Source: an uncultured bacterium
Lineage (GTDB): Bacteria; Bacteroidota; Ignavibacteria; Kapaibacteriales; UBA4661
Length of the DNA stretch: 64,000 nucleotides
Assembly: GCA_937899715.1 (NCBI GenBank)
Contig: CALCNX010000049.1
Span: forward strand, 66,602 to 130,601
Direction: 5' to 3'
The position numbers and the translations under genes are program-made. Position 1 is the first letter of the stretch. Each line of letters starts with the position of its first letter. Below the pieces are notes generated by a model that saw nothing but the letters and a program-made list of their open reading frames with translations, was not told the origin of the DNA and did not search any database. Positions 32,829 to 55,015 of the stretch are shown here, piece after piece.

Positions 32829-34307
32829 TTACAAAGCCACTTGAGCCTGCATGATAAATTCAGTTCTGGTTTCTTGGAAATTCCGTGATGCGTCATAAAC
32901 AGGACGACCACGATAGTGGAAATTCAATCGTGCATTATGACCTTCCAAGAACCAATTAAAACCTGCTTCAGGCAAAATATAGGGCTGGTTCAGTGCCTCA
33001 AAGCTGCCGTAGGTAGCCGCTACATATGGCTGAATGCGGGTGTTGCTGAAAATACCATCGTTTAACAGTTTCACTCGTCCCGGAAAGACATAACCAATTT
33101 CCGTATATGCGCCGTGTCCTGTGCCAATAAGCGGATAAGCATTGCCGCCGCCATTAAATGAATTTGGCGAGCCGGCAACAGCGCGGACACTGGTGACGGG
33201 ATTCATAATGCCGATGTTGCGAATGTAATTTGGTCCCATAGAATAATTGTAGTATGCTGCATAGACGGTAAGCGCATCGGGGTCTTTTCCCGGCTGTAGA
33301 GGCAAGTCCATGAAGAAATCTGCCGCAAGTACCCGATAATCAGTGTTGGTGGTGTCATAGCGGCGTGTCGAGGTGTTATATTTATTTGTCCACATTCCAT
33401 TGGGCTGGAACTGGAAGCCCACACCAAGATTTAAGACTTTTTTTGTCCCGACGTATGTACCTATCATAAAAGGCAAGGTGCGATTTTCTTTGTCCCAGAA
33501 TTCATACGCCACATAGCCCTTCAACTCGCCTGTAACCTGGTTCGGAGAGTAATTACTTGCCGCCCGTGTGGTGTCGCGGGTGAGATTAGTAAAAGCATTG
33601 TTAATACCAATACGAAAAGGCATATCAAAAGCAAACGTATAATCAAAACCAAGCGCTTTACCCTTGACGTATGTGCCAATCATCCGTATAAACTGGTCTG
33701 TCGCGTCAATAGTAGGCCAGCCAAGAATCGGCGAGTCATTTGCCATATAGTTGATAGTGCTGCTCATGCTCATACGCGATAGTCCCGTCCAATAGTGCAT
33801 TCCGAATCCCCAGAACAAGCCGTCATCGGTGGGCGTATTGCCACCTGCCACACGTAATTCACCATAAATATCGTGGAAAAAGATTTGCGGCTTTTTCGCA
33901 CTGGCATTTGGGTCAACCGTTGTGCCGGGAGCACCTACGCCACCGGTGGATTCGGTTTGGTTGTTGATGCCTAAGTGCATCAGTACCAAAAAGTCTTTAT
34001 CTATCTGCGTGTGCAGGAGGAATCGGGAGCGACGTATGCCAATATCGAACGATGTGGGCGTAGCAGCCTCTTGTATGTAAGAATTAGGGTTGTTCTGCAA
34101 ATAGCGGAACCAGATTTGATGCCACGTCAGAAAGCGAATATAGCGCGAGCCATCGTCGTTGAGCTTAATACGAATACCTGTGCCATAGATGTCACTCCCT
34201 TGTGCCGAAGCGGATAAAGGCAGCCACGCCAGAGCGCTGACAATAAGTACCACACCAAGAACGATCTGCACAACCGAAGTTTTGAAAGCGTATCGAAATC
34301 TGTTCAT
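32829..34307 (-). CDS. Hypothetical outer-membrane beta-barrel protein
   Basis: From ATG 34307: MNRFRYAFKTSVVQIVLGVVLIVSALAWLPLSASAQG signal peptide. Alternating amphipathic beta-strand pattern rich in Y/G/N/T. No family named. Confidence 0.5.
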   Translation of the reverse strand: MNRFRYAFKTSVVQIVLGVVLIVSALAWLPLSASAQGSDIYGTGIRIKLNDDGSRYIRFLTWHQIWFRYLQNNPNSYIQEAATPTSFDIGIRRSRFLLHTQIDKDFLVLMHLGINNQTESTGGVGAPGTTVDPNASAKKPQIFFHDIYGELRVAGGNTPTDDGLFWGFGMHYWTGLSRMSMSSTINYMANDSPILGWPTIDATDQFIRMIGTYVKGKALGFDYTFAFDMPFRIGINNAFTNLTRDTTRAASNYSPNQVTGELKGYVAYEFWDKENRTLPFMIGTYVGTKKVLNLGVGFQFQPNGMWTNKYNTSTRRYDTTNTDYRVLAADFFMDLPLQPGKDPDALTVYAAYYNYSMGPNYIRNIGIMNPVTSVRAVAGSPNSFNGGGNAYPLIGTGHGAYTEIGYVFPGRVKLLNDGIFSNTRIQPYVAATYGSFEALNQPYILPEAGFNWFLEGHNARLNFHYRGRPVYDASRNFQETRTEFIMQAQVAL

Positions 34308-34340
34308 ATCAAATCTCCCTAAAAAGATGAAAGTGAATAC

Positions 34341-34466
34341 TATAGGACTTTCGCAAATAGCAAAAACGAACATGATTGGAGTGCGGAATTTTAATTCCGC
34401 AACGTATTTCTCACGAAACAGCGGAATTAAAATTCCGCACTCCCTGTTTTTTGCGAAAGTCCTATA
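34341..34466. repeat. 126-bp composite palindromic element containing two copies of GGAGTGCGGAAT-N-ATTCCGC (copy 1), in the promoter/5-prime region of the OMP gene
   Basis: Arms ggagtgcggaattttaattccgc (34378-34400) and gcggaattaaaattccgcactcc (34421-34443) are exact reverse complements. Each arm is itself palindromic. Outer arms tataggactttcgcaaa / tttgcgaaagtcctata add a further 17-bp stem. Confidence 0.7.
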
Positions 34467-34619
34467 CTAGTTAGGTCAAAAGCTGACGCGCGGACTGAAA
34501 CTATTCGGAACAAGAAGCCCCGCAATCTAGGGAAAATGTTGTATTGATACAAGCAAAAATGCGTGATAAGGGTGCGTATAAGAAGATAGTAAAGTTCGAA
34601 AAATTAGAGAGTGTAAATT

Positions 34620-34748
34620 GTTTTGTGTAAACTTCCCTCACCCAACCCTCTCCCAGAGGGCGAGGGCTTCAGAATAAATTGATTGTTCTTGTCTTCGCTC
34701 CTTCTCCCTCTGGGAGAAGGCGGGGGATGAGGGCTGTTTACACAAAAC
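34620..34748. repeat. Imperfect ~47-bp inverted repeat pair separated by 33 bp (MITE-like or structured-RNA-like)
   Basis: Left gttttgtgtaaacttccctcacccaaccctctcccagagggcgaggg. The reverse complement of the right arm is gttttgtgtaaacagccctcatcccccgccttctcccagagggagaagg, about 80% identical. Confidence 0.55.
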
Positions 34749-34812
34749 TCTGCACACTCTCCAAAATTAGTGGTGATGCTCTATGCCAATATGCAAAAAC
34801 TTGTCCGAAACG

Positions 34813-34949
34813 GTGTGTCAGAACAAAGTGTCAGATTTTTTCTTGCACACTGTCAGAAAAATCTGACACTTTTTATGGGAGTAGCTGTGGAAAATGTCTT
34901 AAAAGTGTCAGATTTTCTGCCCAATCATGCCCAAAAGTGTCAGGTTTTT
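34813..34949. promoter_or_regulatory. Array of five GTGTCAGA(T/A)TTTT motifs including a perfect 18-bp palindrome TGTCAGAAAAATCTGACA, a candidate regulator binding-site cluster upstream of the giant gene
   Basis: Sites at 34813, 34826, 34850-34867 (palindrome), 34903 and 34936. Confidence 0.45.
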
Positions 34950-34953
34950 CTTC

Positions 34954-35008
34954 TGGCACATCCTTTGTAATAGTCTCCTCTGGATAAAAGAATGCACCAA
35001 GGGCAGGG
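34954..35008 (+). promoter_or_regulatory. Two weak sigma-54-like -24/-12 candidates (TGGCAC-N5-TTGT at 34954-34968, TGGATA-N5-ATGCA at 34991-35006)
   Basis: The first matches the full -24 hexamer but has GT instead of GC at -12. The second obeys GG-N10-GC. Neither is a perfect consensus. Confidence 0.2.
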
Positions 35009-35184
35009 ATGTCCTTGAAGGTTTTTGTACTGTGTTGGGAGATGTATAGCTCATCTCCTCGCAGAAGCGGCGGTTGACAGTGTCCGCCCGCACCAACAAA
35101 AGCACCTACAACACTGTTTCGCCTCAAAACACCACCCCTTTATATAATTTACTTTTTTTCCATACTTAAAGGAGTAGTACATAA

Positions 35185-38100
35185 ATGAATTTTGTACTAG
35201 CACAATTGCGTCGCTCCACAAGCGCTTTGCTTGTTGCGTTGACTGCATTTCTTTTGGTAGCCCCTGCTTTGGTCTATGCGCAGTCAACTGCGGATTCCCA
35301 AGTTCAGGGCGAGAGCCGAGATTTCCGCTCGACTCGTAACGGTCGTTGGGTGGACTTGTCCACATGGCAAGTCTATCGCTCAGGCGTCTGGATTGCCGCC
35401 GGACGTGAAGTTGGTGTGCCTAACGGCGCGAGTAACGTTTTCATCGAAACAAACCACACCATTGTGGCTACCCGCGCTGTGCAGGAAGCTATCCAATGGA
35501 ACGGTGCGCAAGCATGGGCGTTCCTCGAGGTAAATAACCTGCATATTAACACTGCTGCGTCTATCACGACGACCTTCGGCAGTTCCAGTATCTCAGGTTT
35601 TACCTATGATGCTCTTGGTAACAACCTCGACCGTTATGACGGCGATGGTAATAGCCGCGCTGCTGTTCTCGGTGGTTCACCGAACTTAGGCAGTGTGAGC
35701 ACATCATTGAGCCAGTTCTCTCCGGTTGCCGGCGGTGTTAATCCGCTTCCCGGTGGTACACTTGGTGGTTACCCGTTCAACCGTATCGGTAACATGGACG
35801 TGTTCTCACCCCAGAACTTTTTGCTTGAGCCGTCGGGTGGACAAGTTCCTACCCCTCGCAACATGGAGTTGCGCGTGTATGGTAAACTCCGCTATTATAC
35901 TGGTAGGGCGTTCGACAAAACCGACCGCTCTGCGAATATCCAAGTGACTGCTGCTACTATCGGTACTGGTTCGACTATTGTTTTCCGCGGTATAACTCGT
36001 ACGATTACATCTCCGGAAGAATGGTCAACCACACTTGCTACACAAACAGGTCGTTTCGACAACACAGCACAAACTGCTGCGTTAGGTTCTGCTGGTACAG
36101 CTGGTGGTTTCGGTTTGCGTTTTGATGACGGTTCGGGTAATGCCGCAGCTGTTAGCCAGGCGCGTATCAATAACTTCCGTGGCTTGATGGGACGTAACTC
36201 GTTCTGGACAGCTGTGTTCGACCTTGGTCGTGTTGTTGACCGTAACTTCTCTGTTGACCAGTTCACTGGTCCGACAGACGATCCTTCGACTGCTATTGGT
36301 ACTCTTCGTGGTAACTTTACCGCAGGTATCATTCAGGTTCGTCGTGGTACAGTTCGTTTTGAAGGTCAGGCGCTTCTTGCAAACGAAGGTGCTCCTACGT
36401 CTGGTTCTATCCAGATTATGAACAACGCTGTTTTGCAAGTTGCTTCTGGTAATATCGGTCGTACTGCTGTGAATCTTTCGCAGTTTGGTAGCCGTTTTGG
36501 TGGTACCTCAACGATTGACCTTTATGGTAGTGGTAATCCTTACCAGCCTGTTCAAACAGACTTGACAGGTAATCCTAATGGTGGTGCTACTCGCGCAGGC
36601 TACTTCTCGCAAACTCCGTCGGGTACATATGGGGTAACTTCCCGTATGCGCTACTTCGTAGTTGAAGAAGGTGGCGCTCTTGATTTCGTTGGCGCTGTTG
36701 GTTCACTTAGTGCTGCTGACGTTCGCTTCAACGGTACGGTTATCTATTCACGTACAGGCGATCAAACGCTTGTTGGTGATTCCCCATTCTTGTCGTTTAA
36801 CCCTGCAGGCACAATCGTCGGTGGCGCTGCTGCTGGTGGCGTTACACTTAATGGTACTGGCGCTGCTGCTGGTACTGGTGGTGTTACCATTAATGCAGGT
36901 GAAAATGGCTTGTTTGACCCGTACAATAATAACTATAATGCTAATGCTGGTGTAACTGCTGCAGGTACTACATGGGCGGGTGATCCTCGTCCGGGTACTA
37001 TTAATGACTTCGGTACAGCTCCATCCGGTCTTGGTGTAGGTACGGCTGCTCTCTTCCAACCTTCCACGACGGCTGCTTACAGCCACCTCGTGTTGCGCGG
37101 TACAGGCACCAAATTCCTCATTGCTACGACTGTAACAATCTCACGCGCGCTCATCTTCCAAGGTGAAGCACGTATGGGCATCCAAAACGTAGCGGGCGAC
37201 GGTACTGTTATCACCATCAACGGTGCTAACCTTGCATCAGGTCTTCCATACTACTTGCAACAGCCTATCGCAGGCGAGTTGGTTGCTAATGACCCTGTAA
37301 GCGGTCGCACGGTTTCACGTGCCGGCTACTTCCCGACATTGGTATATCTTCGTGGTACAGGTTTGACCGGTTTCCGCCAGGAAAACAATATCGGTACAAC
37401 ATTCCGTGGTACGCTTTCAACCGCTACGACTCACACTGAAGCGGATAGCGATCCCGTCAGTGGCGCTCAAGCACAAACGATGTGGTCGGTTTACGGTGGC
37501 AACACTGACCCGGTTATCTTCGTAGGCTTCACGACCGCTTCTACCCGTCCTATCATCTACGATCAGGATATGTACCCAGAAGGTGCTTCCTATCCTATCG
37601 GTATGGTGCTTGCTGGTTCTTTGAACCGTGAGCAGCTTGACATGAGCCCATGGAACAAGCCTGGTGTTGTTCACGGCTTGCCTGCTGAACCGTCATACGA
37701 CGGTAATACTACCGCTATCGGTGATGGACACGGTTCTTCATTCCGTGGTTACACATATACGTCCACAACCCGCTCGCAAACACTTGACGGTGTTCGCACC
37801 GGTCAGGTTATTCGTCAAACTGTTGACCGTGTAAACGGTACCGGCAGCCCGATGACCTTCCCGACCGTTGGTATTGCTAACGTTGCCGGTGTTAACGGTG
37901 GTAACATCATCCGTAACTTCCCGGTTATCACCAATAGCATCCATGACTACGCTATCAATACAAGCGCAACCACAACGTTGCAGTATGACAGCGAAGCGTC
38001 CGATATTATGTCGCAGATTGAGTTCCCGGCTGGTGTAACAGGTCCTCACAACCTTGTGATGAACTGCGCATCGAACGTATCACAAACTCTGCCGATTCGT

Positions 38101-41100
38101 ACCGTTGACTACCGTGGTTTCGACCAATCTGGTATCAACTGGGCTAACGTTGCTGAATTGAACTTCATCAACAAAACCTCAGGTTTGTTCGGTGCTACCG
38201 CAGGTACGATTGTTCTTGGTCCGGAGTATGTGAACTCCACCAATGCAAACTTGCCTCGTAACGCATTCAGCCCTTCGACTGGCTTGTATCAAGCAAGTGC
38301 TATTTACAACCAATCAGGCATCGGTTTGACAAACACGCCGGGCGTTTTGGCTTCAGCATATGTTGATACCCGCCCAGACGTTGCGATTACATCTGCAAAA
38401 ATCAATGACAACTATTATGTCACTGGTGTAGGTGTTCGTCCTTCGGTTTCTCTTACCGGTACCTTCGACGGTCGCGTTCGTGTTGGCTTCCCGACACAAC
38501 GTGTTGTTGGTCCGACCTACCTTAACGGTGGTCAAGCTGCGTATGTTGTTTCCGGTTGGAACAGCGGCGCTCTTCCGCTTGGTCAAAACTCACAAGGTCT
38601 TGCTCAAGACTTCGGTCGTCGTGGTGACTACAATAACTTCGGTGTTGTAGAGCTTCGTCGTGGTAACTTGAACATCCCGAATCGCAATCTTACGTTGAAT
38701 GTTGGTAGTGTTGCCGCTCCGGTAACAGGTACCTTCAACTACTTGTTCGTTCTTTCGTCAACAGCTATCGTCTCGCCTGACCAAGCAAACGTTACGTTCT
38801 TGGGTCAACGCGTAGGTGCTAACAATGCTGCGGCTCAAGTTGTTCTCTCTGAGGCTACTGGTGCTGAGCAATATCCGAGCTTCACCCAGTGGGCAGCAGC
38901 AGGCGTTCGTAACGCTGCGGCTAACCCTGGCGTAGCAGCTCCTGCTGTTATTCGTGGTCCTTCCGGTCCGGCAAACCTTGCTGGTACAATTGTTGGTGGT
39001 TCGCTCTCCAATATCGTCTTCACAGGCGGTACAGGTGGAACCATTGATGGTTCATTCCTTGCATCAGCTCGTAACGGTGGCAGCTCGTCTGTCAACGCAA
39101 CTGGCGCTGCAAATGCTACCTTCACCAACGGTAACGGTCCTCAGCCCGTACACTATGCTGCAACAGACAATGCGAACTCTGGTCTTACCGAGCTTTCGGT
39201 TGCTACCGGTATTCCTGGTCTGCAGGCATTCTCACCGAGCTATGTTCCAAGCATTACTGGTGTTCCGACATCAGCAGCTTCGAACCCATTCCCTAATACG
39301 GCAGTTTCCACCCATCGTTACAATGCAGGTCCTGAGATGACCAGCGATGCTGACGTTACGTTGGCTTCTATCGTTTACGGCGCAGATGCTATTTCTAACC
39401 AAACAGCTCTCGCTGCTGGTATTCAGTCCGGTAACAATCAGGTTTATCCTAACGGTCCGAGCTTGATTACCAATGCTGGTCACACTTCGTCATCATACAA
39501 TGCAGGTATTGTTCGTGCTAACAACGCATGGAACATTGACCTTCCATATGTACGCAGTGGTCTTCAGCACGTAACGTTCCTCCGCGCTACCTCGAACGTC
39601 ATGACGCTCGTTGGTAACTTGGACAACAGCACGAACAATCCTGGTGGCAGCCCGAACGGCATTGACGCACCGGGTCTTACGACTGCTAAACCGGAACTTT
39701 CCGGCTTGCAAGTGTACGGTACAATTGCAACCGCTCGCGGTGATATTGACCTTAACGGTCGTAACATCGAGCTTGGTGGCAACAACTCCATGCTTGTAGA
39801 AGCATTCGAGCGTACACAGTATGTTGACTCCATCGGTGGTCGTCCACGTTGGACAGCTATCCAAGTTGGTATGCCTCGTGGCTTCTCGAACGGTAACATC
39901 AACGGTATCGCTCCTGGTCAGTGGACAAATGGTGTTGTAACAGCACCGTACCGCACCGGCGATCCGCTTCCTGTTTACCCGACCCGTCCGTCATCGGTTA
40001 TCAACAACCACCGCGAAGTTCGCGCGTATATTGGTCTCACCTCTGGTCGTAACATCCAGCCGATGAACCAAAATCTTGGTATCAACCAAGTAAACGAGAA
40101 CCCCGCTGGTCTTGGCGCGTACATCTACCAAACAGCAAACCCGGCTCAGTTCCGTGTTCGTCGTTGGCAGACACGCGGTAACGGTCTTAATGGTGCGCTT
40201 TCGACCCGTCCGGGCGTTCGCACAGCTGACCGCTACTGGCAAGTAGAAACCACCGGCACCATGGCTGTTATCATGGGTCGCTCGGAGATCCGCCTGCAAT
40301 ACATCGATACCGACCTCAACAACGAGAACGGTACGACTTCAGGTCTTCCTCCGGCATCCTTGAATATGTTCCGTGCTCAAGGTCAACCGCTTATTGCTCC
40401 GAACTCACCGTTCATCGGTCCGTTCCAAGCACTCTTCGCTCAACAACTTGTTGGTTTGGATTCCTATAACTTCGTGAAAATGCTCACGATTACTGGCGAT
40501 CGTCAAACAGTAAACGGTGCAACCGTTCTCAACACTGGTAACTTTGCAACCGGTGATCCCGCAAGCGGTCGTTTGCCGGATGCAACCAACCCGCAAAACC
40601 CACAAGCTGGTTTCCAAATCTGGGCTATCGGTATTCCTGCTCCTCGTTGCTTGGTGCTTCGTGGTCAGCGCTTCGGCGGTACCTTCGGTGACCCAATTGG
40701 TAGCGGCTTTGGTGTAGCTGCTGGTCAAGATATTCTTGGCTTCCCGCCTCCATTCGGTTCATTCGCAACCGGCGGTGGTATCAGCACAGCTACTGCTAAT
40801 CAATTTGGTACCATCATCGGACCGTTCAAAGCAGGTTATGCTACGAACGCAACGATCGTTGCAGACCTTCTTGACGAGTTTGGTAACGTTGCTACGACGA
40901 ACTTCTCCACAGGCGCTTCGCTTGTAGTTGGTCAAGTAAGCAATGGTACTCTTGGTCCATGGAATACCGGTGTACCGGCTCTCTTCCAAGGCACAAATGG
41001 CTTCCCGTCAGGTCGCATTGGCGCACTTTCGGGTAATGGTGGCTTGACAGCAAACGCTACTACGGGTGGTCCCGTTGGTGGTCGCTTTGAGTGGCCGAAC

Positions 41101-43965
41101 GTCCGTCTTGACGGTGTGGCTTCGACAACAGTTACCTTCACCTTGGTGAATGACTTCGTTGGCGATGCAACCCAACTTGGTGCTTCCGTTCTTCCGCGTC
41201 TCGACGCGCAAGTAGTGGCAGCAAACGGTGGTTCATTTGCTCTTCCGGTTGCTAACCCAACCTCCACGATTACCTATTGCGATAACCAAGCAGTTCAGGT
41301 TTCGCTCCAAGGTGGTTTCCCATTCAGCGTAACATTTGCTACGCAAAATGCTAACAACACTGGTGCAACGAACCTCTATCCTGGTTCTGTTGGTCCGATG
41401 GCCGCTCCTGGTCGCGTCGCTGCTACTCCTGGCATCGCTACTTCCGGTTATGACGGCTCTATCCCGACAAACCTCACCGGTATTCCGACAAACGGTGTTG
41501 TTGTTGGTCAGACGGTAACATTCCCATATGCTACTCCTGGCTTTAGCAGCATCACGGTTATCGTAAAAGACCGATTCGGTAACTTTGCTTCCTTCCCGAC
41601 GACAGCAACGATTTCTATCGCTGGCGGTTCGCCACCAGTTGATCAGCAGCGCACACCGCTCGTTGGTCAAGTTGCAAACTCAACGGTTGTTTGGGGCTTA
41701 GGTAACCTTGGTCTCGAAACAGCTGGCGCTCCTCAACTTGCTGCACCGGGTATTGCTCGTGTGTACGGTCCGGGCGGCGATGGTCTGACGCAACCTGCAC
41801 AAACAGCACAACAAGTAAACCCTGCGAGCTTGCCAACAGGCACAAGCCTGCTTAATAGCCGCGCTTCACTTGTTTCGCCAGCACTTGCTCCGACCGGTTC
41901 GGGCTATGCTCCGTTCAACAACCCACAAGTTGCTTCGCACTTGGCATCGTTCCCGAACTTCCAAATTTGGGGCGCTACCTCGAGCAACGTAACACTCGTT
42001 GTTTCTTCGACAAACTTTGATCCGAACGCTCCGATTGGTCTTGGCGCTCCGGGCAACACATCGGCTACGATTCACATCGTTCCGGCTGCTGCTATCGGTA
42101 TCGCTCCGGTTATCGTTCCTGATATCTATAACCGTAACCAACCTGACCGTATGCCGTCAAGAATGTACATTGGTCGCTCAAATAACAGCGATCCTCGTAC
42201 ATGGTTCTATGTTCAAGCTGTTGACCAATTCGGCAACCGCGTTGACAATGGTCCGAACGCATACAATGGCGGTACTGCAAACATTACCTTCCGCACGCCT
42301 CAACAAGGCTTGCCTGGCAATGCTGCTGGTACATTCCAGTTCACGCAGACAACCCCTGCTGATCCGTATGTGAAAGCAAACAACCAAGCATATGCTGCGA
42401 CCGGTACATCCGCTCCGGCAGTATTTGGTCTGTACACCTTCAACAACTTTATCCCAACCGGTCCGGCTTCCATCGATCCGCTTGGTAAAGACGTTGTTCT
42501 GACCTTTGAAGACCTTGCGCTTCCAGGTGTACGTGCTCCGCTCGCTTCTGGTGCTACCGGACTCTTCCGTCCGATCCCGCCGGTAACGACTGCAACGACG
42601 ACCTTCTTGCCTGTTCCGCGCGTGAGCTTCTCCGTGCCGGATGCTGGTCAAGCTGGCGCTCCTGCAAACGGTGCTTCTAAAGTTGGTACAAACGTTCTCG
42701 TCCTTGACGAGCGTGCTCGTACCTACATTAGTGGTAACAACACCCTTGAATCTGGCTCACTTCGCGTAAGCCGTGATCCGGGTCAAGTTGCAAACGACAT
42801 CGCAGTTGGCTATACCCTTACCTACTTCAATGCAGCAAATGCAATTGATGCTAGCGGTCGTGTAGTTAATCGTGCTGGTCTTTCGGTTCTTCCGAACATT
42901 GGTACAACCGTACTTCAGCTTCCGGCTCCGCTTCCGGCAGGCGTGGTGGCAACACCTGCTTTCCCGGCTCCGACCCCGGTAGCTATCAATGGTCTGCAAG
43001 GTGACTTGTCGCCTAGCACAACCCCTGCGGGTCGTCCGCAATCCACGGTCAACGTAACAGCACCGGGCGTACCGGGCACGTTCTTCTTGGATGCAGGCGT
43101 ATCGCAACAGCTTGTTAACTTCACAGCTCGTTATAGCGATCAATCATGGGCACGCAATCCTGGTATCCAAGGTCCGCGCGTTGCGGTCTTGAACCTCTTG
43201 CCGCCTGATGCTCAGAACGCAACCATTTATGACGTAGACCGCACCAATGGTGTTGATTCTGGTTTTGTAGTTCTTCTCGACCCGGCAGCAGTACCACCGG
43301 TAATTACCAACGCGATCCAAGACAAACAACTCTTGCGTCCGACCGGTACCGCGCCAACAGAAGACCGTATCGAACTTGAGTCGCCACAATGGCGCCCAGA
43401 TAACGTTCCAGGCTTTGTATTCTATGATGACAACTACAATCCGATGACGTACACCGCTACATCATCCGATCCGACCGTTGTTTCTGTACGTGTACGTGCT
43501 TTGGATTCGACCGTTCAGAATGGTACTGTTGATCCTCGTCCGACCTTGTACTATGCAGTACAACCGGGCGCGGCAGTTGGCGCAAACGTAGTAATTACTG
43601 TTGTTGCTAGCGATGGTACAACGCAAACCGACGGTCAACGTCGTCTTGCTACCGACCAATTCAACGTAACTGTTCGCAATAGCATCACCAGCGTAGCTGT
43701 TGATCCTGCTGCAATCGGCTTCAGCGTATCGCCGAACCCGACAGTTGAACGCTTCACCGTACAAGCAAAAGCTGCAAAAGCTGGCACAGTTCGCGTGAAT
43801 GTTGTCAATATGCTCGGTCAAGTGGTTCGCTCGGTCAACTTTGAAGTTGGCGCAGGCGAAGTTTACAGCCGTGAATTCGATATTGCTAACCTTGCAACAG
43901 GTGCTTATACCGTTCAAATCAATGACGGTGTTAGCGCTTCTGCAATGAAAGTTATCAAAAACTAA
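35185..43965 (+). CDS. Giant (2926 aa) secreted surface protein with a type IX secretion system C-terminal sorting domain
   Basis: Signal peptide MNFVLAQLRRSTSALLVALTAFLLVAPALVYAQ. G/T/N/A/S-rich composition throughout, with no TM. The last ~80 aa (VSPNPTVERFTVQAKAAKAGTVRVNVVNMLGQVVRSVNFEVGAGEVYSREFDIANLATGAYTVQINDGVSASAMKVIKN) are a typical Por_Secre_tail/T9SS CTD. AAGGAG precedes the start. Confidence 0.85.
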   Translation: MNFVLAQLRRSTSALLVALTAFLLVAPALVYAQSTADSQVQGESRDFRSTRNGRWVDLSTWQVYRSGVWIAAGREVGVPNGASNVFIETNHTIVATRAVQEAIQWNGAQAWAFLEVNNLHINTAASITTTFGSSSISGFTYDALGNNLDRYDGDGNSRAAVLGGSPNLGSVSTSLSQFSPVAGGVNPLPGGTLGGYPFNRIGNMDVFSPQNFLLEPSGGQVPTPRNMELRVYGKLRYYTGRAFDKTDRSANIQVTAATIGTGSTIVFRGITRTITSPEEWSTTLATQTGRFDNTAQTAALGSAGTAGGFGLRFDDGSGNAAAVSQARINNFRGLMGRNSFWTAVFDLGRVVDRNFSVDQFTGPTDDPSTAIGTLRGNFTAGIIQVRRGTVRFEGQALLANEGAPTSGSIQIMNNAVLQVASGNIGRTAVNLSQFGSRFGGTSTIDLYGSGNPYQPVQTDLTGNPNGGATRAGYFSQTPSGTYGVTSRMRYFVVEEGGALDFVGAVGSLSAADVRFNGTVIYSRTGDQTLVGDSPFLSFNPAGTIVGGAAAGGVTLNGTGAAAGTGGVTINAGENGLFDPYNNNYNANAGVTAAGTTWAGDPRPGTINDFGTAPSGLGVGTAALFQPSTTAAYSHLVLRGTGTKFLIATTVTISRALIFQGEARMGIQNVAGDGTVITINGANLASGLPYYLQQPIAGELVANDPVSGRTVSRAGYFPTLVYLRGTGLTGFRQENNIGTTFRGTLSTATTHTEADSDPVSGAQAQTMWSVYGGNTDPVIFVGFTTASTRPIIYDQDMYPEGASYPIGMVLAGSLNREQLDMSPWNKPGVVHGLPAEPSYDGNTTAIGDGHGSSFRGYTYTSTTRSQTLDGVRTGQVIRQTVDRVNGTGSPMTFPTVGIANVAGVNGGNIIRNFPVITNSIHDYAINTSATTTLQYDSEASDIMSQIEFPAGVTGPHNLVMNCASNVSQTLPIRTVDYRGFDQSGINWANVAELNFINKTSGLFGATAGTIVLGPEYVNSTNANLPRNAFSPSTGLYQASAIYNQSGIGLTNTPGVLASAYVDTRPDVAITSAKINDNYYVTGVGVRPSVSLTGTFDGRVRVGFPTQRVVGPTYLNGGQAAYVVSGWNSGALPLGQNSQGLAQDFGRRGDYNNFGVVELRRGNLNIPNRNLTLNVGSVAAPVTGTFNYLFVLSSTAIVSPDQANVTFLGQRVGANNAAAQVVLSEATGAEQYPSFTQWAAAGVRNAAANPGVAAPAVIRGPSGPANLAGTIVGGSLSNIVFTGGTGGTIDGSFLASARNGGSSSVNATGAANATFTNGNGPQPVHYAATDNANSGLTELSVATGIPGLQAFSPSYVPSITGVPTSAASNPFPNTAVSTHRYNAGPEMTSDADVTLASIVYGADAISNQTALAAGIQSGNNQVYPNGPSLITNAGHTSSSYNAGIVRANNAWNIDLPYVRSGLQHVTFLRATSNVMTLVGNLDNSTNNPGGSPNGIDAPGLTTAKPELSGLQVYGTIATARGDIDLNGRNIELGGNNSMLVEAFERTQYVDSIGGRPRWTAIQVGMPRGFSNGNINGIAPGQWTNGVVTAPYRTGDPLPVYPTRPSSVINNHREVRAYIGLTSGRNIQPMNQNLGINQVNENPAGLGAYIYQTANPAQFRVRRWQTRGNGLNGALSTRPGVRTADRYWQVETTGTMAVIMGRSEIRLQYIDTDLNNENGTTSGLPPASLNMFRAQGQPLIAPNSPFIGPFQALFAQQLVGLDSYNFVKMLTITGDRQTVNGATVLNTGNFATGDPASGRLPDATNPQNPQAGFQIWAIGIPAPRCLVLRGQRFGGTFGDPIGSGFGVAAGQDILGFPPPFGSFATGGGISTATANQFGTIIGPFKAGYATNATIVADLLDEFGNVATTNFSTGASLVVGQVSNGTLGPWNTGVPALFQGTNGFPSGRIGALSGNGGLTANATTGGPVGGRFEWPNVRLDGVASTTVTFTLVNDFVGDATQLGASVLPRLDAQVVAANGGSFALPVANPTSTITYCDNQAVQVSLQGGFPFSVTFATQNANNTGATNLYPGSVGPMAAPGRVAATPGIATSGYDGSIPTNLTGIPTNGVVVGQTVTFPYATPGFSSITVIVKDRFGNFASFPTTATISIAGGSPPVDQQRTPLVGQVANSTVVWGLGNLGLETAGAPQLAAPGIARVYGPGGDGLTQPAQTAQQVNPASLPTGTSLLNSRASLVSPALAPTGSGYAPFNNPQVASHLASFPNFQIWGATSSNVTLVVSSTNFDPNAPIGLGAPGNTSATIHIVPAAAIGIAPVIVPDIYNRNQPDRMPSRMYIGRSNNSDPRTWFYVQAVDQFGNRVDNGPNAYNGGTANITFRTPQQGLPGNAAGTFQFTQTTPADPYVKANNQAYAATGTSAPAVFGLYTFNNFIPTGPASIDPLGKDVVLTFEDLALPGVRAPLASGATGLFRPIPPVTTATTTFLPVPRVSFSVPDAGQAGAPANGASKVGTNVLVLDERARTYISGNNTLESGSLRVSRDPGQVANDIAVGYTLTYFNAANAIDASGRVVNRAGLSVLPNIGTTVLQLPAPLPAGVVATPAFPAPTPVAINGLQGDLSPSTTPAGRPQSTVNVTAPGVPGTFFLDAGVSQQLVNFTARYSDQSWARNPGIQGPRVAVLNLLPPDAQNATIYDVDRTNGVDSGFVVLLDPAAVPPVITNAIQDKQLLRPTGTAPTEDRIELESPQWRPDNVPGFVFYDDNYNPMTYTATSSDPTVVSVRVRALDSTVQNGTVDPRPTLYYAVQPGAAVGANVVITVVASDGTTQTDGQRRLATDQFNVTVRNSITSVAVDPAAIGFSVSPNPTVERFTVQAKAAKAGTVRVNVVNMLGQVVRSVNFEVGAGEVYSREFDIANLATGAYTVQINDGVSASAMKVIKN

Positions 43966-44010
43966 TTGATGAGGCTTTAACGCTTCATCTGTTAGTTCTC
44001 ATAACAGGTA

Positions 44011-44055
44011 AAAAACAGCACCGTACTCTTTGGGTACGGTGCTGTTTTGTTTTAT
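44011..44055 (+). terminator. Rho-independent terminator of the giant gene
   Basis: aaaaaCAGCACCGTACtctttggGTACGGTGCTGttttgtttt has a perfect 11-bp stem plus a T-run. Confidence 0.75.
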
Positions 44056-44073
44056 ATTGGTGGCATACAAATC

Positions 44074-44147
44074 GGAGTGCGGAATGTATTCCGCATCAAG
44101 TATGTCTGCGAAGTATGAGAAGAGAGGCGGAATAGATTCCGCACTCC
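44074..44147. repeat. Second copy of the GGAGTGCGGAAT-N-ATTCCGC double-palindrome element, immediately upstream of the AlbA_2 regulator gene
   Basis: ggagtgcggaatgtattccgca (44074-44095) and gcggaatagattccgcactcc (44127-44147). Same termini and half-sites as the element at 34378-34443. Confidence 0.7.
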
Positions 44148-44170
44148 AGACAGTCAAATCAATTTGCACC

Positions 44171-44830
44171 ATGAAACGCCACCAACTCCGCGAAATCATT
44201 GCCGGCGGCGAGTCGCTGACGGTTGAATTCAAGCGAAAATTCACATCGGACGTAAAAATAGCCAAGGAACTGATTGCTTTTGCGAACAGCAAAGGCGGGT
44301 ATTTACTGATGGGTGTGGACGATGATAAAACGATTGTGGGAGTCCGCAGCGAAAAAGAGGAAATTAGCCAGTTGGAAGTGGTCTGCCGCTATTTTATTGA
44401 CCCACCCTTGGAGCCGGAGATAGAAATTGTCAACATTGAGTACAAAGATGTGGTCGTAGTTCGTGTGGAAGAAAGTGACGAAAAACCGCACCGACTGACG
44501 GTGGATGTGCACGGGAAAAACCTTGACAAACTTCACGAGCGTCCCGTTTTCGTGCGCGAGGGCGCAGCAGCACTTCAGGCAAGTAAAGAAGTGATAAAAG
44601 TGCTGGAGGCAAGCAATGACGACACAGAAGTAACCCTCAGCATCGGCAAGCACGAAAAGCGGCTATTTGAGTATTTGGAAGCGAAGAATAAGATTACTGC
44701 AAAGGAGTTTGCTGCTATTGCCAATATCTCGGAGCGCCGCGCAATACGGCTGCTGATACGACTAGTGAGAATCGGTCTTGTGCGTCTGTATTCGCACGAA
44801 AAAGTGGAATACTATACGCTCGTCGGGTAG
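44171..44830 (+). CDS. AlbA_2 (Schlafen-like) putative DNA-binding domain protein with C-terminal winged-helix HTH
   Basis: From ATG 44171: MKRHQLREIIAGGESLTVEFKRKF... is the characteristic GExxxxEFK motif of the AlbA_2 domain. C-terminal ITAKEFAAIANISERRAIRLLIRLVRIGLV is an HTH. The ORF-track start at 44030 is unlikely. Confidence 0.6.
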   Translation: MKRHQLREIIAGGESLTVEFKRKFTSDVKIAKELIAFANSKGGYLLMGVDDDKTIVGVRSEKEEISQLEVVCRYFIDPPLEPEIEIVNIEYKDVVVVRVEESDEKPHRLTVDVHGKNLDKLHERPVFVREGAAALQASKEVIKVLEASNDDTEVTLSIGKHEKRLFEYLEAKNKITAKEFAAIANISERRAIRLLIRLVRIGLVRLYSHEKVEYYTLVG

Positions 44831-44872: not shown

Positions 44873-46264
44873 TCAGTGCTCAATATTGTATTTCTCCAAC
44901 ATTCGGTAGAACGTAGCGCGCCCAATATCAAGTTTGTGTGCTGCTTCTTGGATATTACCGCCCGTGATTTCAAGAGCGATGCGAATTGCTTGCTCCTTGA
45001 TTTTGTCGAGCGGGAGTATGTTCCCGGAGGTAGCCGTAAAATGAATTTCTGCGGGTTTGTCACTGGGCGAGTCGGGGATTTCGGGTGTTCCGGCGAGCAA
45101 GTGTAACTCTTCTTCGGTAATAATTTTGGTCTCGCAAAGTACCACAGCGCGTTCTATGGTGTTCTCAAGTTCGCGGACGTTGCCTTGCCAGTGATAATGC
45201 GTGAGGATGCGCATTGCCTTTGGGCTGAAGCTCCGTGCGGGCTGGTCGTAGCGCATGGCGAATTTTTCGAGGAAATACTGCGCCAGTGCCGGAATGTCTT
45301 CAGTGCGTTCCCTGAGGGGTGGGAGTTTCACGGGAAAGGATGCAAGGCGATAGTACAAATCCTCGCGGAACGTGCCTTGCTTGATTGCGTCGTGTAGATT
45401 GCGGTGCGTTGCCGAGACAATGCGAATATCCACCGTGACGACTTCGCTGCCCCCAACGCGCTCAAACTGCTTCGTTTGCAAGACGCGCAGGAGCTTGGCT
45501 TGGAGGCTTAAATCTAATTCTCCAATTTCGTCCAAAAAGAGTGTGCCGCCGTTTGCTTGTTCAAACTTTCCAATTTTGCGTTGAATCGCGCCCGTGAATG
45601 CGCCGCGTTCATGCCCAAAGATTTCGCTTTCCAAAAGGTCTTTGGGGATAGAAGCACAGTTGAGTGCCACGAAGGGGGCGCTTGCACGCCGGGTGCCCTC
45701 GTGGAGCGCCTGCGCGATAAGCTCCTTGCCTGTGCCGGTTTCGCCCTGTATCAGCACGGCAATATCGGTGTTCTGTGCCTTCTTCACTAATTTGAAGACG
45801 CTTTGCATTGCATCACCAACCGAAATCATGTTTGCAAATTTTATGCGTTCGGTGGATTCTTCCGAGAGCTTGCGCACCTCGCCTGTTAGAGAGAACATCT
45901 GAATAGCATTGCGGGCAGTGATTTCGAGTTTGGTCAGGTCGAGTGGTTTTTGCAGATAGTCAAATGCACCCAACTTGATTGTTTCCACAGCCACCTCAAT
46001 GCGCCCTTGCCCGGAGAGCATTACTACGGGTGTTTCGGGGAATCGGGCTTTGCATTCTTTGAGAATTTCCACGCCGCTCATGCCCGGAAGCATAATGTCG
46101 AGCAGCACAAGCGACGGTGCGGCATTGATACCGTCCGGCGAAAGTTCTTTGAGAAAATCTTCGCCGCGTGTGAAGACGCGGACATTATAGCCAAAAGAGC
46201 TAAGATTATGCTCAAGAAGCAACTGCAAATTTGCTTCATCTTCGACGACGTACACAGTGTGCAT
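44873..46264 (-). CDS. Sigma-54-dependent response regulator (NtrC/Fis family: REC + AAA+ + Fis HTH)
   Basis: REC (VLLDIMLPGMSGVEIL, phospho-Asp). AAA+ Walker A GETGTGKE and the GAFTGA sigma-54 contact motif. C-terminal Fis-type HTH (ATFYRMLEKYNI). Confidence 0.9.
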   Translation of the reverse strand: MHTVYVVEDEANLQLLLEHNLSSFGYNVRVFTRGEDFLKELSPDGINAAPSLVLLDIMLPGMSGVEILKECKARFPETPVVMLSGQGRIEVAVETIKLGAFDYLQKPLDLTKLEITARNAIQMFSLTGEVRKLSEESTERIKFANMISVGDAMQSVFKLVKKAQNTDIAVLIQGETGTGKELIAQALHEGTRRASAPFVALNCASIPKDLLESEIFGHERGAFTGAIQRKIGKFEQANGGTLFLDEIGELDLSLQAKLLRVLQTKQFERVGGSEVVTVDIRIVSATHRNLHDAIKQGTFREDLYYRLASFPVKLPPLRERTEDIPALAQYFLEKFAMRYDQPARSFSPKAMRILTHYHWQGNVRELENTIERAVVLCETKIITEEELHLLAGTPEIPDSPSDKPAEIHFTATSGNILPLDKIKEQAIRIALEITGGNIQEAAHKLDIGRATFYRMLEKYNIEH

Positions 46265-46375: not shown

Positions 46376-47569
46376 TTATTCTATTGGCAGTCTAACTGTA
46401 AAGGTTGAACCTTTCCCCACAGTGCTTTCGGCACGGATACTCCCGCCGTGCAATTCCACAATTTGTTTTGCAATCGCAAGACCCAGCCCCGTACCGCGAA
46501 TTTCTTTACCCTCGGTGTCGCGCTGCTTGGCACGGTAAAATTTCTCGAAAAGACGTGGCAGGTCGCTTGCCGGGATGCCAACACCTGTATCGGCGATACT
46601 GATTTCTATGCGCTCTGCATTATGTACAACACTAATAGTAATCTTCCCGTCCTGCGGGGTGAACTTGACAGCATTGGCAAGAAGATTTACAAAGACTTGT
46701 GTGATACGGTCGTTGTCCAGAGCCAGAAAGGGCAGCGTCTCTGGCGAGTAATCGTGCACAATAGCAATGCGTTTCGATTCTGCTTCGGCGGCGATAATGT
46801 GAGCCGCATAGTCAAGAATCTGCCCAATAGATACGTGCTGTGTGATAAGCGACGTTTTGCCGCTTTCAATACGCGAAATATCCAGCAAATCTTCCACAAG
46901 CCGTTCCAAACGCCGCCCGTCATCCAGAATAATCGTCAGAAATTGCGTGGCTTTTTCCGGTGGGAGCTGCGGCGAACGCAGAAGTGTTTGTGCAAAGCCG
47001 ATGATGGAAGCAAGTGGCGTGCGGAGTTCGTGGGAGACCTGAGAAACGAATTCATTTTTCATGTCATTGAGCTTATGCAGTGCCTCTGCGTGCTGCCGCT
47101 CACGGTCTCGCTCAAATTCCATACGTTTGATGGCGGTAATATCGCGCCCTTCCACGATAAAGAAATCTATTTCCCCGGCGGAGCTAAAAATGGGCTTTAT
47201 AGAAAGGTCAACCACAGCCCGTGTGCCTTCCAGATTGACGATTTCGCCAGTATAGCGCACAAATTCGCCACCAGAAGCGCGGTAGAGTCCTGTTTGGAGT
47301 TTGGAGCGAGCGGCTTCGTCTGCCCAACATTCTAAGTCCCACAGCGTTTTGCCGAGTGCTTCGGGCGCGGCAACGCCAGTGAAATTGACGGCTGCTTGGT
47401 TAATTTCTAAAATAACGCCGTCAACACTCACCAGAAAAATGAACTGGAAGGTATTGTGAAAAATAGCTTGAAAACGTTTGCGGAGGTCTGTTTCTGTGGG
47501 TGCGTCGTGAAGCGCCATCGTGCCTACGTCATCGTGTAAGAAAGCGGTTTCTAGGCGGCAAGATAGCAT
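46376..47569 (-). CDS. Cytoplasmic PAS-domain sensor histidine kinase (NtrB-like), partner of the adjacent sigma-54 activator
   Basis: No TM. PAS region. H-box VSHELRTPLASIIGF. HATPase_c G-boxes (IADTGVGIP, GTGLGLAIAKQIVELHGG). Confidence 0.85.
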   Translation of the reverse strand: MLSCRLETAFLHDDVGTMALHDAPTETDLRKRFQAIFHNTFQFIFLVSVDGVILEINQAAVNFTGVAAPEALGKTLWDLECWADEAARSKLQTGLYRASGGEFVRYTGEIVNLEGTRAVVDLSIKPIFSSAGEIDFFIVEGRDITAIKRMEFERDRERQHAEALHKLNDMKNEFVSQVSHELRTPLASIIGFAQTLLRSPQLPPEKATQFLTIILDDGRRLERLVEDLLDISRIESGKTSLITQHVSIGQILDYAAHIIAAEAESKRIAIVHDYSPETLPFLALDNDRITQVFVNLLANAVKFTPQDGKITISVVHNAERIEISIADTGVGIPASDLPRLFEKFYRAKQRDTEGKEIRGTGLGLAIAKQIVELHGGSIRAESTVGKGSTFTVRLPIE

Positions 47570-53170: not shown

Positions 53171-55015
53171 TTAGAAACGGCTTGTCGGCGGAGGTAATGC
53201 GCGGTTTTTTGCTTGCGGCAATGCACGTTGGTTGTCGGTAAGCCGCACATCATTGGTGAGGACAAAGCGGCTGATGGAATCTCGAAGGTCGTCGGCTTGG
53301 CGCATCAGACGCTCAATGCTGCGGGCAATATCCTGTACGCCTTCGTTCGATTCTTCCACAACCGACGACATAGCGTGCATACTCTGCGCCATTTGTGCAC
53401 TGGTGGAAGATTGTTGGTCGCTGGCGGACGCTACTTGCGACATGACATCGGAGACTTTGCTGGTGCGATTGATGATTTGCTCCAATGCTTGGGTGGTTTG
53501 CCCGACAAGCTGAGTTCCTTGTTCCACAAGCACTGTGCCTTCATTCATGCCTTTGACGGCAGCGCCCATCTCGCCTTGAATGGTTTTTATCATCGTAGAA
53601 ATTTCTTTCGTTGCTTTTTGTGTGCGTTCGGCGAGTTTACGGACTTCATCGGCGACAACGGCAAAGCCACGCCCCGACTCGCCCGCACGAGCTGCTTCGA
53701 TAGCGGCGTTGAGTGCTAGAAGATTGGTCTGGTCGGCGATTTCATCAATAACCGATACAATTTCTCCGATTTTCTCGCTGGATTGCCCCAGCTGCTTGAT
53801 TTTTGCGGCTGAATCCAATACCACCTTGCCGACTTGCTCCACGTTGTTAATCATGCTGCGCATGACTTGTTCGCTTTGGTATGCTTCGTCGTTGGCAAGC
53901 GAGGCTTCGTATGCCGCGACAGAAATTTGCTGTGTATTCTCGCTAATAGTACGCGACATTTCTTCCACAGCTCCGGCAAGCTGTACGACTTGACCACTTT
54001 GCTCTTTTGCACCTGCGGACAGTTCCTCTGTTGCGCCGCTTATTTGAGAGACCGCATCGGCAGTGTTGTTGACGGAACCGACCACTTGCGCAATCATCCG
54101 GCTGACGTTCTCCATGCTGCTATTGATAGCATTGAAAAGCTGCCCAATATCGTCATTCGTTTCTGCTTTCAATCGCCCCGTCAGGTCGCCTTGTGCCATG
54201 AGGTCAATGGCGTGCATGGCAGTTGAGACGTGGGAGGCAAGATACTGTTTTTGTCCTTCGATTTGTTCCAAATCCCGTTTCGCGCGGGCTTCATTTTCCT
54301 GCTTGAGTGCTTCGAGTGCTGCATAATCTGATGTGGAGCGAGCTTCGGATTCTTTGCGTGTTATCTCAAGTTCTGCGAGGGTTGTGTTTTTGCTGCGCTC
54401 ATATATTTGCCCCAAAAGAAAAACTAACAGCGCAATGCCAGCAATACCCAAAAAGCCTTGTAGTTGTTTTTGCATCGGCGAAACTTGGACGCTCGGCACT
54501 TCTATTCCACTGAGCTTGAGGGCAAACAACGTGGTTAAAACAAAGAGTGTTAGCAAAAGCCAGCGAAAGCCTCCGCGAAGCCCTGTGAACATTACTCCTA
54601 AAAGTGGTACGATTGCTATCCAAATACGAGTGAGGGCATCGTGTCCGCCTTCGTTCATCACCAGCCCCGTGCTGACAACAAGAAATGAAGCGACAAGTAC
54701 GTGACAAAGACCATTCAGTCCTGTTCCTCCGCGCAGCAAAAAAGGCACGGCAAAGAGTAATGCTGCGGCTCCCAGAAGCAGCACACCACTAGCAATAACC
54801 TGGGTAGCAAAAAAGTATTGGAGCGCGTAGAATGTAGCAATAAACGTTGTGGAAAAGGACGTTGCTACTAATAGCCGTGCTCGCCGAAACGTGTCTGGGT
54901 CGGTGCGCAATGTCGCAGGAACAAAACTGAGGATAAACTCTTGCATGGCAAACAATGATGATAAAAGGAAGAAAGTCCGCAAAACCTTGTGTGCGTCTGA
55001 GCGCGTTTCGCCCAT
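53171..55015 (-). CDS. Methyl-accepting chemotaxis protein (multi-TM N-terminal sensor, HAMP, MCP signalling domain)
   Basis: The highly conserved MCP hairpin tip ([25 protein letters not shown]) and methylation heptads. About 8 TM N-terminal. An alternative start is at 54946. Confidence 0.85.

Follow-up and report, generated by a model that had tools for sequence, protein, structure and literature searches.

Proteins exported by the T9SS, or type IX secretion system, have so far been examined chiefly in Porphyromonas, Tannerella, Flavobacterium and Cytophaga. Cargo with a type A C-terminal sorting domain (CTD) is transported by Sec and exported, PorU removes the CTD, and the protein is then attached to anionic lipopolysaccharide (LPS) or released (PMC10202324). 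Tannerella TfsA and TfsB provide the precedent for T9SS-exported S-layer proteins (PMC4175972; PMC10202324). Here, we analyzed a gene of 2926 codons (the giant gene, encoding the giant protein) that lies in a 64,000-nucleotide stretch (the window) of contig CALCNX010000049.1, assembly GCA_937899715.1, from an uncultured bacterium of the Kapaibacteriales. The host belongs to a deep uncultured branch of the Bacteroidota that is common in mats, springs and bioreactors, and many relatives within the Bacteroidota bear the same type A CTD.

As a large T9SS surface protein, the giant protein is of an ordinary kind, and it is distinctive in being lineage-restricted and non-repetitive and in having a head of no described family. 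The reading that we favor, at roughly even chances, is that of an abundant T9SS-anchored surface-coat protein, either S-layer-like or forming a dense fibrillar layer. It is favored by the codon bias of the gene, by its monocistronic high-output design and by the pattern of its paralogues.

The giant gene, its family and its codon usage

An open frame of 2926 codons in DNA of 49% GC cannot have arisen by chance (Table 1). Intact full-length homologues are present in many independent assemblies. The ratio of nonsynonymous to synonymous substitution rates (dN/dS), calculated against an orthologue of 85% identity, is 0.156 in the head core, 0.156 in the stalk, 0.259 in the head loops and 0.064 in the CTD, and it is 0.014 for the neighboring response regulator. 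The giant gene is therefore intact and under purifying selection. It is not a frameshifted pseudogene, a possibility raised by the first-pass annotation of this DNA, which had been made from the letters alone. Pervasive positive selection is ruled out, with dN/dS values of at most 0.26 across all modules.

The first-pass annotation had described a protein biased toward Gly, Thr, Asn, Ala and Ser, with a signal peptide, no transmembrane segment, a canonical T9SS sorting domain and no recognizable catalytic family, and had considered the peptidases of the window to be unlinked to it. All of these points hold. Gly (12.1%), Ala (10.8%), Thr (10.0%), Asn (7.8%) and Ser (7.2%) make up 47.8% of the 2926 residues, versus 33.0% in the 20 other proteins of the window pooled. 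Lys (0.62%) and Glu (1.8%) are scarce when compared with the neighbors (5.4 and 6.5%, respectively), and three Cys residues are present. In a hydrophobicity scan the sole strongly hydrophobic 19-aa window corresponded to the signal peptide (aa 11–35), and the second-ranked window, at aa 2293, is Pro-rich and falls under the transmembrane level. The conserved AQ junction of the signal peptide and a type A CTD that scores above the Por_Secre_tail threshold are described below. Residues 1–2848 matched no Pfam or NCBIfam family, neither within the whole protein nor as five separate segments at E ≤ 10, and no catalytic family was recognized in these searches. Segment matches to SoxZ, DUF3244, HepII_C and Cadherin-like families were far under threshold and were rejected.

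The giant protein is non-repetitive. Self-BLASTP was empty at E ≤ 10, and tandem or dispersed repeats were absent from the DNA of the gene, as judged by Tandem Repeats Finder (TRF) and seed extension. In a profile–profile comparison of 24 segments with hhalign, the best self-match reached 53% probability over 29 columns, with D-x-FGN near aa 1897, 2129 and 2347. The internal periodicity for which the first-pass annotation had proposed a search was thus found by none of BLASTP, hhalign, TRF and seed extension.

When 5.8 billion proteins were searched, 34 homologue clusters (2,478–3,149 aa, 40–99% identity) were recovered, mostly aligned over their full length. Their names are confined to “T9SS type A sorting domain-containing protein,” and they come from metagenome-assembled genomes (MAGs) of Ignavibacteria or Candidatus Kapabacteria. 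Among GTDB genomes, scanned with one representative for each species, 15 loci were found, all from MAGs of Candidatus Kapaibacterium or “Ignavibacteria bacterium”; NCBI taxonomy places Kapaibacterium within the Bacteroidota. On this distribution the giant head–stalk–CTD family is lineage-restricted, and it has paralogues, up to three per single MAG. MAG Clear-D13 carries an orthologue (85% identity), a giant of subfamily B (54%) and a 1,155-aa “mini” (31%), and two giant paralogues plus the 1,155-aa mini are found in single Kapaibacterium MAGs (loci L012, L013 and L019, in the same MAGs as L005 and L006). The mini family (P0035–P0040, 1,155–1,231 aa) consists of the core and a type A CTD only. 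The conserved core blocks of the family include MGRNSFWTA, DFGRRGD-NNFGV, DLNGRNIE and GDIDLNGRNIELGGN, with which the giant protein is colinear. Literature searches that paired Kapabacteria with T9SS, with gliding or with metaproteomics, and G8 with T9SS, yielded nothing on this protein.

The effective number of codons (Nc) of the giant gene is 38.9, the lowest among 18 genes of the window, with the 17 others ranging from 45.4 to 55.9. Relative to the pooled genes, the giant gene prefers GGT (0.73 vs. 0.29), CGT (0.60 vs. 0.27) and TTC (0.79 vs. 0.44), also favors GCT, GTT, ATC and AAC, and shuns GGG, GGA, CGG, ATA, CCC and GCC. The next most biased gene, atpD, deviates in the same direction (GGT, CGT, GCT, GTT, TTC and ATC up; GGG, CGG and ATA avoided); for AAC, GGA and CCC it is like the pooled genes and unlike the giant gene. 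The preference for T-ending four-fold and C-ending two-fold codons argues for translational selection rather than for a simple shift in GC content at third positions. Orthologues with 85 and 41% identity have Nc values of 38.3 and 41.0, respectively, and show the same bias relative to their own neighbors. The bias is absent from a subfamily B giant (Nc 52.9) and from a mini (Nc 54.1). We read this pattern as one bulk-expressed form accompanied by weakly expressed variants, as is reportedly the case in some S-layer gene families. The codon bias suggests that the giant gene is very highly expressed, and thereby favors a surface-coat or S-layer-like role over that of a low-copy adhesin. In its host, the giant protein is probably the dominant protein of the cell surface.

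Table 1. Features of the giant gene, its product and its regulatory surroundings (window coordinates)
Feature	Position	Strand	Remarks
TGTCAG/CTGACA motif cluster	34816–34943	+	Candidate sites for a sigma-54 enhancer-binding protein; putative function
Sigma-54-like -24/-12 element, TGGCACatcctTTGT	34954–34968	+	~230 nt upstream of the gene start
5′ leader, ~200 nt	34980–35184	+	Conserved blocks; transcription start predicted from promoter position alone
Coding sequence of the giant gene	35185–43965	+	ATG start, 2926 aa plus stop codon, no internal stop
Sec signal peptide, aa 1–32	35185–35280	+	Conserved extended n-region; predicted cleavage VYA/Q, leaving an N-terminal Gln
Head, aa 33–1795	35281–40569	+	Conserved core interrupted by lineage-specific loops; non-repetitive
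N-terminal head module, aa 43–663	35311–37173	+	Common to a wider family of 700–900-aa T9SS cargo
Stalk, aa 1800–2848	40582–43728	+	Predicted divergent Ig-like beta-sandwich domains; D-x-FGN near aa 1897, 2129 and 2347
T9SS type A C-terminal sorting domain, aa 2849–2926	43729–43962	+	PF18962 and TIGR04183
Intrinsic terminator	44012–44058	+	Strong; 17-bp stem flanked by A-tract and T-tract; 47 nt past the stop codon
NtrC-type response regulator	44873–46264	-	Receiver, sigma-54 activator AAA+ and Fis-type helix-turn-helix domains (Pfam); GAFTGA at aa 221
PAS histidine kinase	46376–47569	-	Pfam; kept in loci L006 and L008; presumed partner of the regulator

Export signals and modules of the giant protein

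The signal peptide reads MNFVLAQLRRSTSALLVALTAFLLVAPALVYA, with Q as the next residue. Judged from its sequence pattern, it comprises a positively charged n-region, a hydrophobic stretch of ~18 aa and the VYA/Q junction. In a 32-sequence alignment, at least 90% of the homologues keep A32 and Q33, and AQ closes the signal peptide in all 20 of the family N-termini displayed. Most Bacteroidetes substrates of signal peptidase I expose an N-terminal Gln, the so-called Q-rule (PMC5837995). The n-region itself (aa 1–15, 35185–35230) is unusually long, with the motif M(N/K/S/E)FVL(A/D)xxR(R/I)S. Members of subfamily A with identities as low as 40% keep it, and subfamily B and the minis lack it. The n-region is reminiscent of the extended signal peptides found in giant autotransporters; a Pfam ESPR match is absent.

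At the other end, aa 2849–2924 match Pfam PF18962 with 37.2 bits (cutoff 27), and the extreme C-terminus matches TIGR04183 with 32.1 bits (cutoff 23). The models of type B CTDs (PF13585 and TIGR04131) gave no match in the giant protein. These signals suggest that the giant protein is exported by the T9SS and anchored at the cell surface.

Lys accounts for 0.3–0.6% of the head and stalk (~0.5% of the mature part) versus 5.1% of the CTD, a ~10-fold depletion in the mature part. Across the giant family the average is 0.78% for the mature chain versus 3.9% for the final 80 residues, and in the smaller cargo family described below (A5) Lys is moderately low, at 2.85%. As a speculation, avoidance of Lys might protect against proteases, Lys-specific ones among them, or reduce amine side reactions with the PorU sortase intermediate by keeping coat molecules from serving as nucleophiles. 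The contrast between the mature chain and the cleaved CTD offers a sequence-level clue to T9SS surface chemistry.

The module borders were drawn from an alignment of the giants and the mini paralogues. The head core shared with the minis comprises ~1,009 residues and the giant-specific insertions 758 residues; 22 head loops of at least 10 aa amount to 712 aa together. The loops are Gly-rich and variable, with many gaps in the alignment to homologues. Identity to nine representative homologues is 63–90% in the core, 41–91% in the stalk and 32–78% in the loops, so that conservation decreases from core to stalk to loops. Together with dN/dS values of 0.16–0.26 (0.014 for the regulator), this layering fits a protein that is exposed yet structurally constrained.

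No relative of the head was found in the PDB or in Pfam: searches of the PDB with profiles of the full family, of the core and of the remote family matched CTDs only. The ~1,000-aa head core is thus a conserved scaffold without a solved or annotated relative, for which the 1,155-aa mini could provide a tractable handle. A core profile (A4), built from four minis and two giant heads with the signal peptide and CTD removed, gave 101 matches at E ≤ 1e-3 in an exhaustive search of 1.84 billion representatives. The matches outside the Kapaibacterium family are mostly 660–950 aa long and colinear with core positions ~10–180 and ~207–450, and a few also match core positions ~890–1015. Nearly all of these remote relatives finish with a type A CTD and carry no further annotation. 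For core positions ~520–885, relatives outside the family were not found.

When the core was compared by hhalign with 31 of the remote relatives (A5), it aligned over aa 43–663 of the giant protein with 99.95% probability (E 1.4e-38). Pfam G8 was matched by 8 of these 31 homologues (best E 7.8e-5) and the autotransporter family PATR by one. A separate 3,672-aa T9SS relative (P0046) has 14 tandem copies of a G8-like N-cap motif and matches G8 positions 5–43. G8 and PATR are both associated with beta-helices, and the head of the giant protein probably starts as a G8-like capped beta-helix. PATR gave no match in the giant protein or a mini, even at E ≤ 10, and a mini paralogue had no G8 match at the same cutoff.

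AlphaFold2 (AF2) modeled aa 1231–2430 with a mean predicted local distance difference test score (pLDDT) of 54.4. Within this segment aa ~1810–2430 alone are credible, with scores of 70–87, and model as a chain of successive beta-sandwich domains. Foldseek searches with the model returned solely chains of multiple immunoglobulin-like (Ig-like) or fibronectin type III domains, namely a mastigoneme, integrins, alpha-2-macroglobulin, the FdeC adhesin (probability 0.85) and a Nitrosopumilus S-layer, with weak statistics, as expected for a multidomain model. The remainder of the stalk (aa 2431–2848) is likely to be beta-sandwich as well, judging from its sequence pattern and the sub-threshold Cadherin-like match.

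The transcription unit and its surroundings

By its layout the giant gene is a monocistronic unit. Conserved operon partners were not found past close relatives, other synteny is not kept, and the neighbors of the giant gene are ordinary chromosomal genes. A strong Shine-Dalgarno sequence, AAGGAG (35169–35174), precedes the ATG. The upstream regions of seven orthologues, with protein identities as low as 55%, share an invariant TGGCA(C/T)-N5-TTTG(T/G) with a variable spacer. In the same regions, TGTCAG-N6-CTGACA is invariant ~85–100 bp upstream of the TGGCAC element and is accompanied by extra half-sites; in the window the palindrome TGTCAGAAAAATCTGACA (34851–34868) lies within this cluster.

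The NtrC-type regulator is kept downstream of the giant gene in the orthologous loci L004/L005 (same contig), L006, L008 and L011, and the regulator together with the PAS histidine kinase stays just downstream in orthologous loci whose identity is as low as 68%. As a candidate arrangement, a sigma-54 promoter driven by the adjacent two-component pair is the most economical reading of these elements. We infer from it a regulatory link between the NtrC-type regulator and the giant gene.

Searches of the locus with Rfam gave sub-threshold chance matches only. Among them, a Thr_leader match at 44010–44114 on the minus strand (33.3 bits vs. a gathering threshold of 55) is almost certainly due to chance and reflects the terminator hairpin on the other strand; it also overlaps part of a palindromic element at 44074–44147. 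This element, of 66–74 bp (GGAGTGCGGAAT...ATTCCGCACTCC), has just one other copy in the window, at 34378–34443, and the two copies bracket the giant transcription unit, with five half-site matches versus 0.18 expected. One half-site is retained downstream of the 85% orthologue. The element could be of the repetitive extragenic palindromic (REP) type or a protein-binding site.

An imperfect inverted repeat (34604–34764) with 61-nt arms, 70% complementary, a 39-nt spacer and G/C-rich cores (ccctcaccc...gggatgaggg) is located upstream of the promoter, in intergenic DNA. The divergent upstream open reading frame (ORF) of 514 aa (32829–34373, minus strand) has no Pfam match and is not kept beside the orthologues; its product is Gly/Thr/Asn-rich and poor in Lys and Glu (K 2.7, E 2.5) and resembles a secreted or outer-membrane protein. 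An SLFN_AlbA_2-domain gene (44030–44830, plus strand) follows the giant gene and is retained there in relatives. Its listed TTG start at 44030 falls inside the terminator hairpin, and the true start is probably downstream, e.g., an ATG near 44172. A methyl-accepting chemotaxis protein gene is found at 53171–55015 (minus strand), with similar genes near the homologous loci L001 and L003, which suggests that the host lineage is motile and chemotactic.

Possible roles and comparison with described systems

According to the surface-coat reading, the precursor would cross the inner membrane via Sec and be cut at VYA/Q, leaving an N-terminal Gln that can cyclize to pyroglutamate. The type A CTD would steer the precursor through the T9SS, and a PorU-type sortase would cut off the CTD and join the new C-terminus to anionic LPS. 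C-terminal anchoring by the T9SS type A route (PMC10202324), combined with the anatomy of the protein, suggests that the stalk projects the head off the membrane. The molecule would stand C-terminus down on the outer membrane, with an Ig-like stalk of ~1,050 aa, reaching tens of nanometres if extended, that lifts the 1,760-aa head outward. The first module of the head scaffold would be G8-like and probably beta-helical, a heritage of the smaller T9SS cargo family, and the scaffold would carry the 22 fast-evolving loops rich in Gly, Ala, Ser, Thr and Asn. A dedicated sigma-54-type promoter would drive transcription, with the adjacent PAS-kinase/NtrC-type pair probably activating it, and bulk production would lead to a dense coat, S-layer-like or fibrillar, that forms the contact and protection interface of the cell.

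Several observations weigh against parts of this picture. With 292 kDa, the mature giant protein would be unusually large for an S-layer protomer. Codon bias is no more than a proxy for abundance, and its reference here is 17 genes of one window. None of the T9SS core genes (GldK/L/M/N, SprA/Sov, PorV and PorU) is present within the 64-kb window, and the -12 element of the promoter reads GT or GG, where GC is canonical. The O-glycosylation motif D(S/T)(A/I/L/V/M/T) occurs at two sites, one of them moderately conserved, versus 8.6 ± 2.7 in shuffled sequences. This Bacteroidetes motif is reportedly used heavily by Tannerella TfsA and TfsB. As regards the fold of the head, the evidence for a beta-helix comes entirely through transitive homology: G8 itself was not matched by the giant protein (whole at E ≤ 1; aa 34–260 at E ≤ 10). 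AF2, supplied with the 32-sequence alignment, did not fold aa 34–1230 (mean pLDDT 37.7) and gave runs of short strands with pLDDT 60–86 at aa ~223–533 only. Structure searches with the head models returned nothing informative. The “beta-solenoid or Ig-like” architecture proposed in the first-pass annotation is borne out in part. The C-terminal third is predicted to be a beta-sandwich chain by AF2 and Foldseek. For the solenoid part, the head shares homology at its start with G8- and PATR-matching proteins, but the giant protein lacks a G8 match and its head could not be folded by AF2.

In a fuller form, which we put forward tentatively and consider possible rather than probable, the giant protein would build an undescribed Kapaibacterial T9SS-anchored coat. 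Such a coat would have a 292-kDa protomer with a nearly lysine-free chain, a non-repetitive 1,760-aa head fold that is unrepresented in the PDB and bears 22 hypervariable loops, a sigma-54 two-component switch and, for alternative coats, weakly expressed paralogues of giant and mini type. If so, it would be a second, unrelated surface layer built by the T9SS. As the main coat, it would define the contact of the cell with its surroundings and be an obvious target of phages and grazers.

A low-copy fibrillar or gliding adhesin, comparable to Flavobacterium SprB or RemA, in which the stalk presents a binding head that is possibly moved by the T9SS/gliding motor, appears rather unlikely. The strong and deeply conserved translational codon bias is unexpected for a low-copy protein, even though the anchor–stalk–head layout matches that of fibrillar adhesins and the core evolves more slowly than the variable surface loops. 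The CTD is of type A, as in RemA (PMC10202324), and not of type B as in SprB; an adjacent PorP/SprF-type gene was not detected, and synteny is not conserved. The stalk has no tandem repeats, and a lectin or other known binding domain was not found with Pfam and NCBIfam. The chemoreceptor encoded in the window is consistent with a gliding role insofar as the organism is probably motile somehow.

It is improbable that the giant protein is a surface-anchored enzyme acting on polysaccharides, or a polysaccharide-binding protein, with a large beta-helix head (of pectate-lyase fold, or like the hyaluronan-degrading, G8-containing CEMIP and TMEM2) held on a stalk to act on polymers outside the cell within microbial mats. 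Invariant Asp, Glu, Arg and His residues are unusually numerous in the core, which also has long invariant blocks (e.g., MGRNSFWTA, DFGRRGD-NNFGV and GDIDLNGRNIELGGN), and remote relatives match G8; however, no catalytic family was detected in Pfam, NCBIfam or the PDB with single sequences or profiles, and the E88/H91 motif is lost in the wider family, where E is replaced by Q. Glycan-degrading enzymes are commonly exported by the T9SS (PMC10202324), but carbohydrate-utilization genes are not conserved alongside the giant gene, and making an enzyme of 292 kDa at very high levels would be costly. That the gene is decaying, or the ORF an artefact, chimeric through assembly or due to chance, is next to inconceivable, as the sole weak point of the giant protein, its lack of a characterized relative, stands against 2926 stop-free codons, 34 full-length homologue clusters from independent assemblies, 15 GTDB loci, dN/dS well below 1 in every module, and a conserved promoter, Shine-Dalgarno sequence and terminator.

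Returning to the surface-coat reading, the giant protein can be compared with several described proteins. TfsA and TfsB are said to have an Ig-like architecture and a low-Cys composition. As predicted for the giant protein, they are large Bacteroidota surface proteins that are exported by means of a T9SS CTD, and they are abundant and retained at the surface (PMC4175972; PMC10202324). The giant protein differs from them in being about twice as long, in its 1,760-aa non-Ig head and in its depletion of the O-glycosylation motif. A head-core relative that is annotated or of TfsA/TfsB size was not seen in the exhaustive profile search with the head core, the stalk not having been searched separately.

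SprB and RemA of Flavobacterium johnsoniae are likewise giant and rich in small, polar residues, and they are surface proteins exported by the T9SS, as is predicted for the giant protein. SprB has a type B CTD and depends on an adjacent SprF, neither of which was detected here, and it is highly repetitive whereas the giant protein is not; no protein of SprB size (>6000 aa) was present among the 101 matches of the core profile. RemA shares its CTD type with the giant protein (PMC10202324) and has a lectin domain, which was not detected in the giant protein.

Outside the family, the A5 proteins, 700–900-aa T9SS type A cargo of Ignavibacteria and Bacteroidota MAGs, are homologous to aa 43–663 of the head. 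They show the same order as the giant protein, with an N-terminal W-x-x-x-x-T-W cap, a beta-rich module, sometimes the domain of core positions ~890–1015, and the CTD. In contrast to the giant protein, they are three to four times shorter and are devoid of core positions ~520–885, of the 22 loops and of the Ig-like stalk. The resemblance to G8 (PF10162; PKHD1, CEMIP/KIAA1199 and TMEM2) and PATR (PF12951) is transitive and is limited to the first ~60–100 aa of the head. With fibrillar adhesins the giant protein shares a predicted C-terminal anchor, a predicted beta-sandwich stalk and a distal N-terminal head. It departs from them in that its stalk domains have diverged too far to be recognized as repeats, its head is exceptionally large and the most conserved part of the protein, and its codon bias indicates bulk expression.

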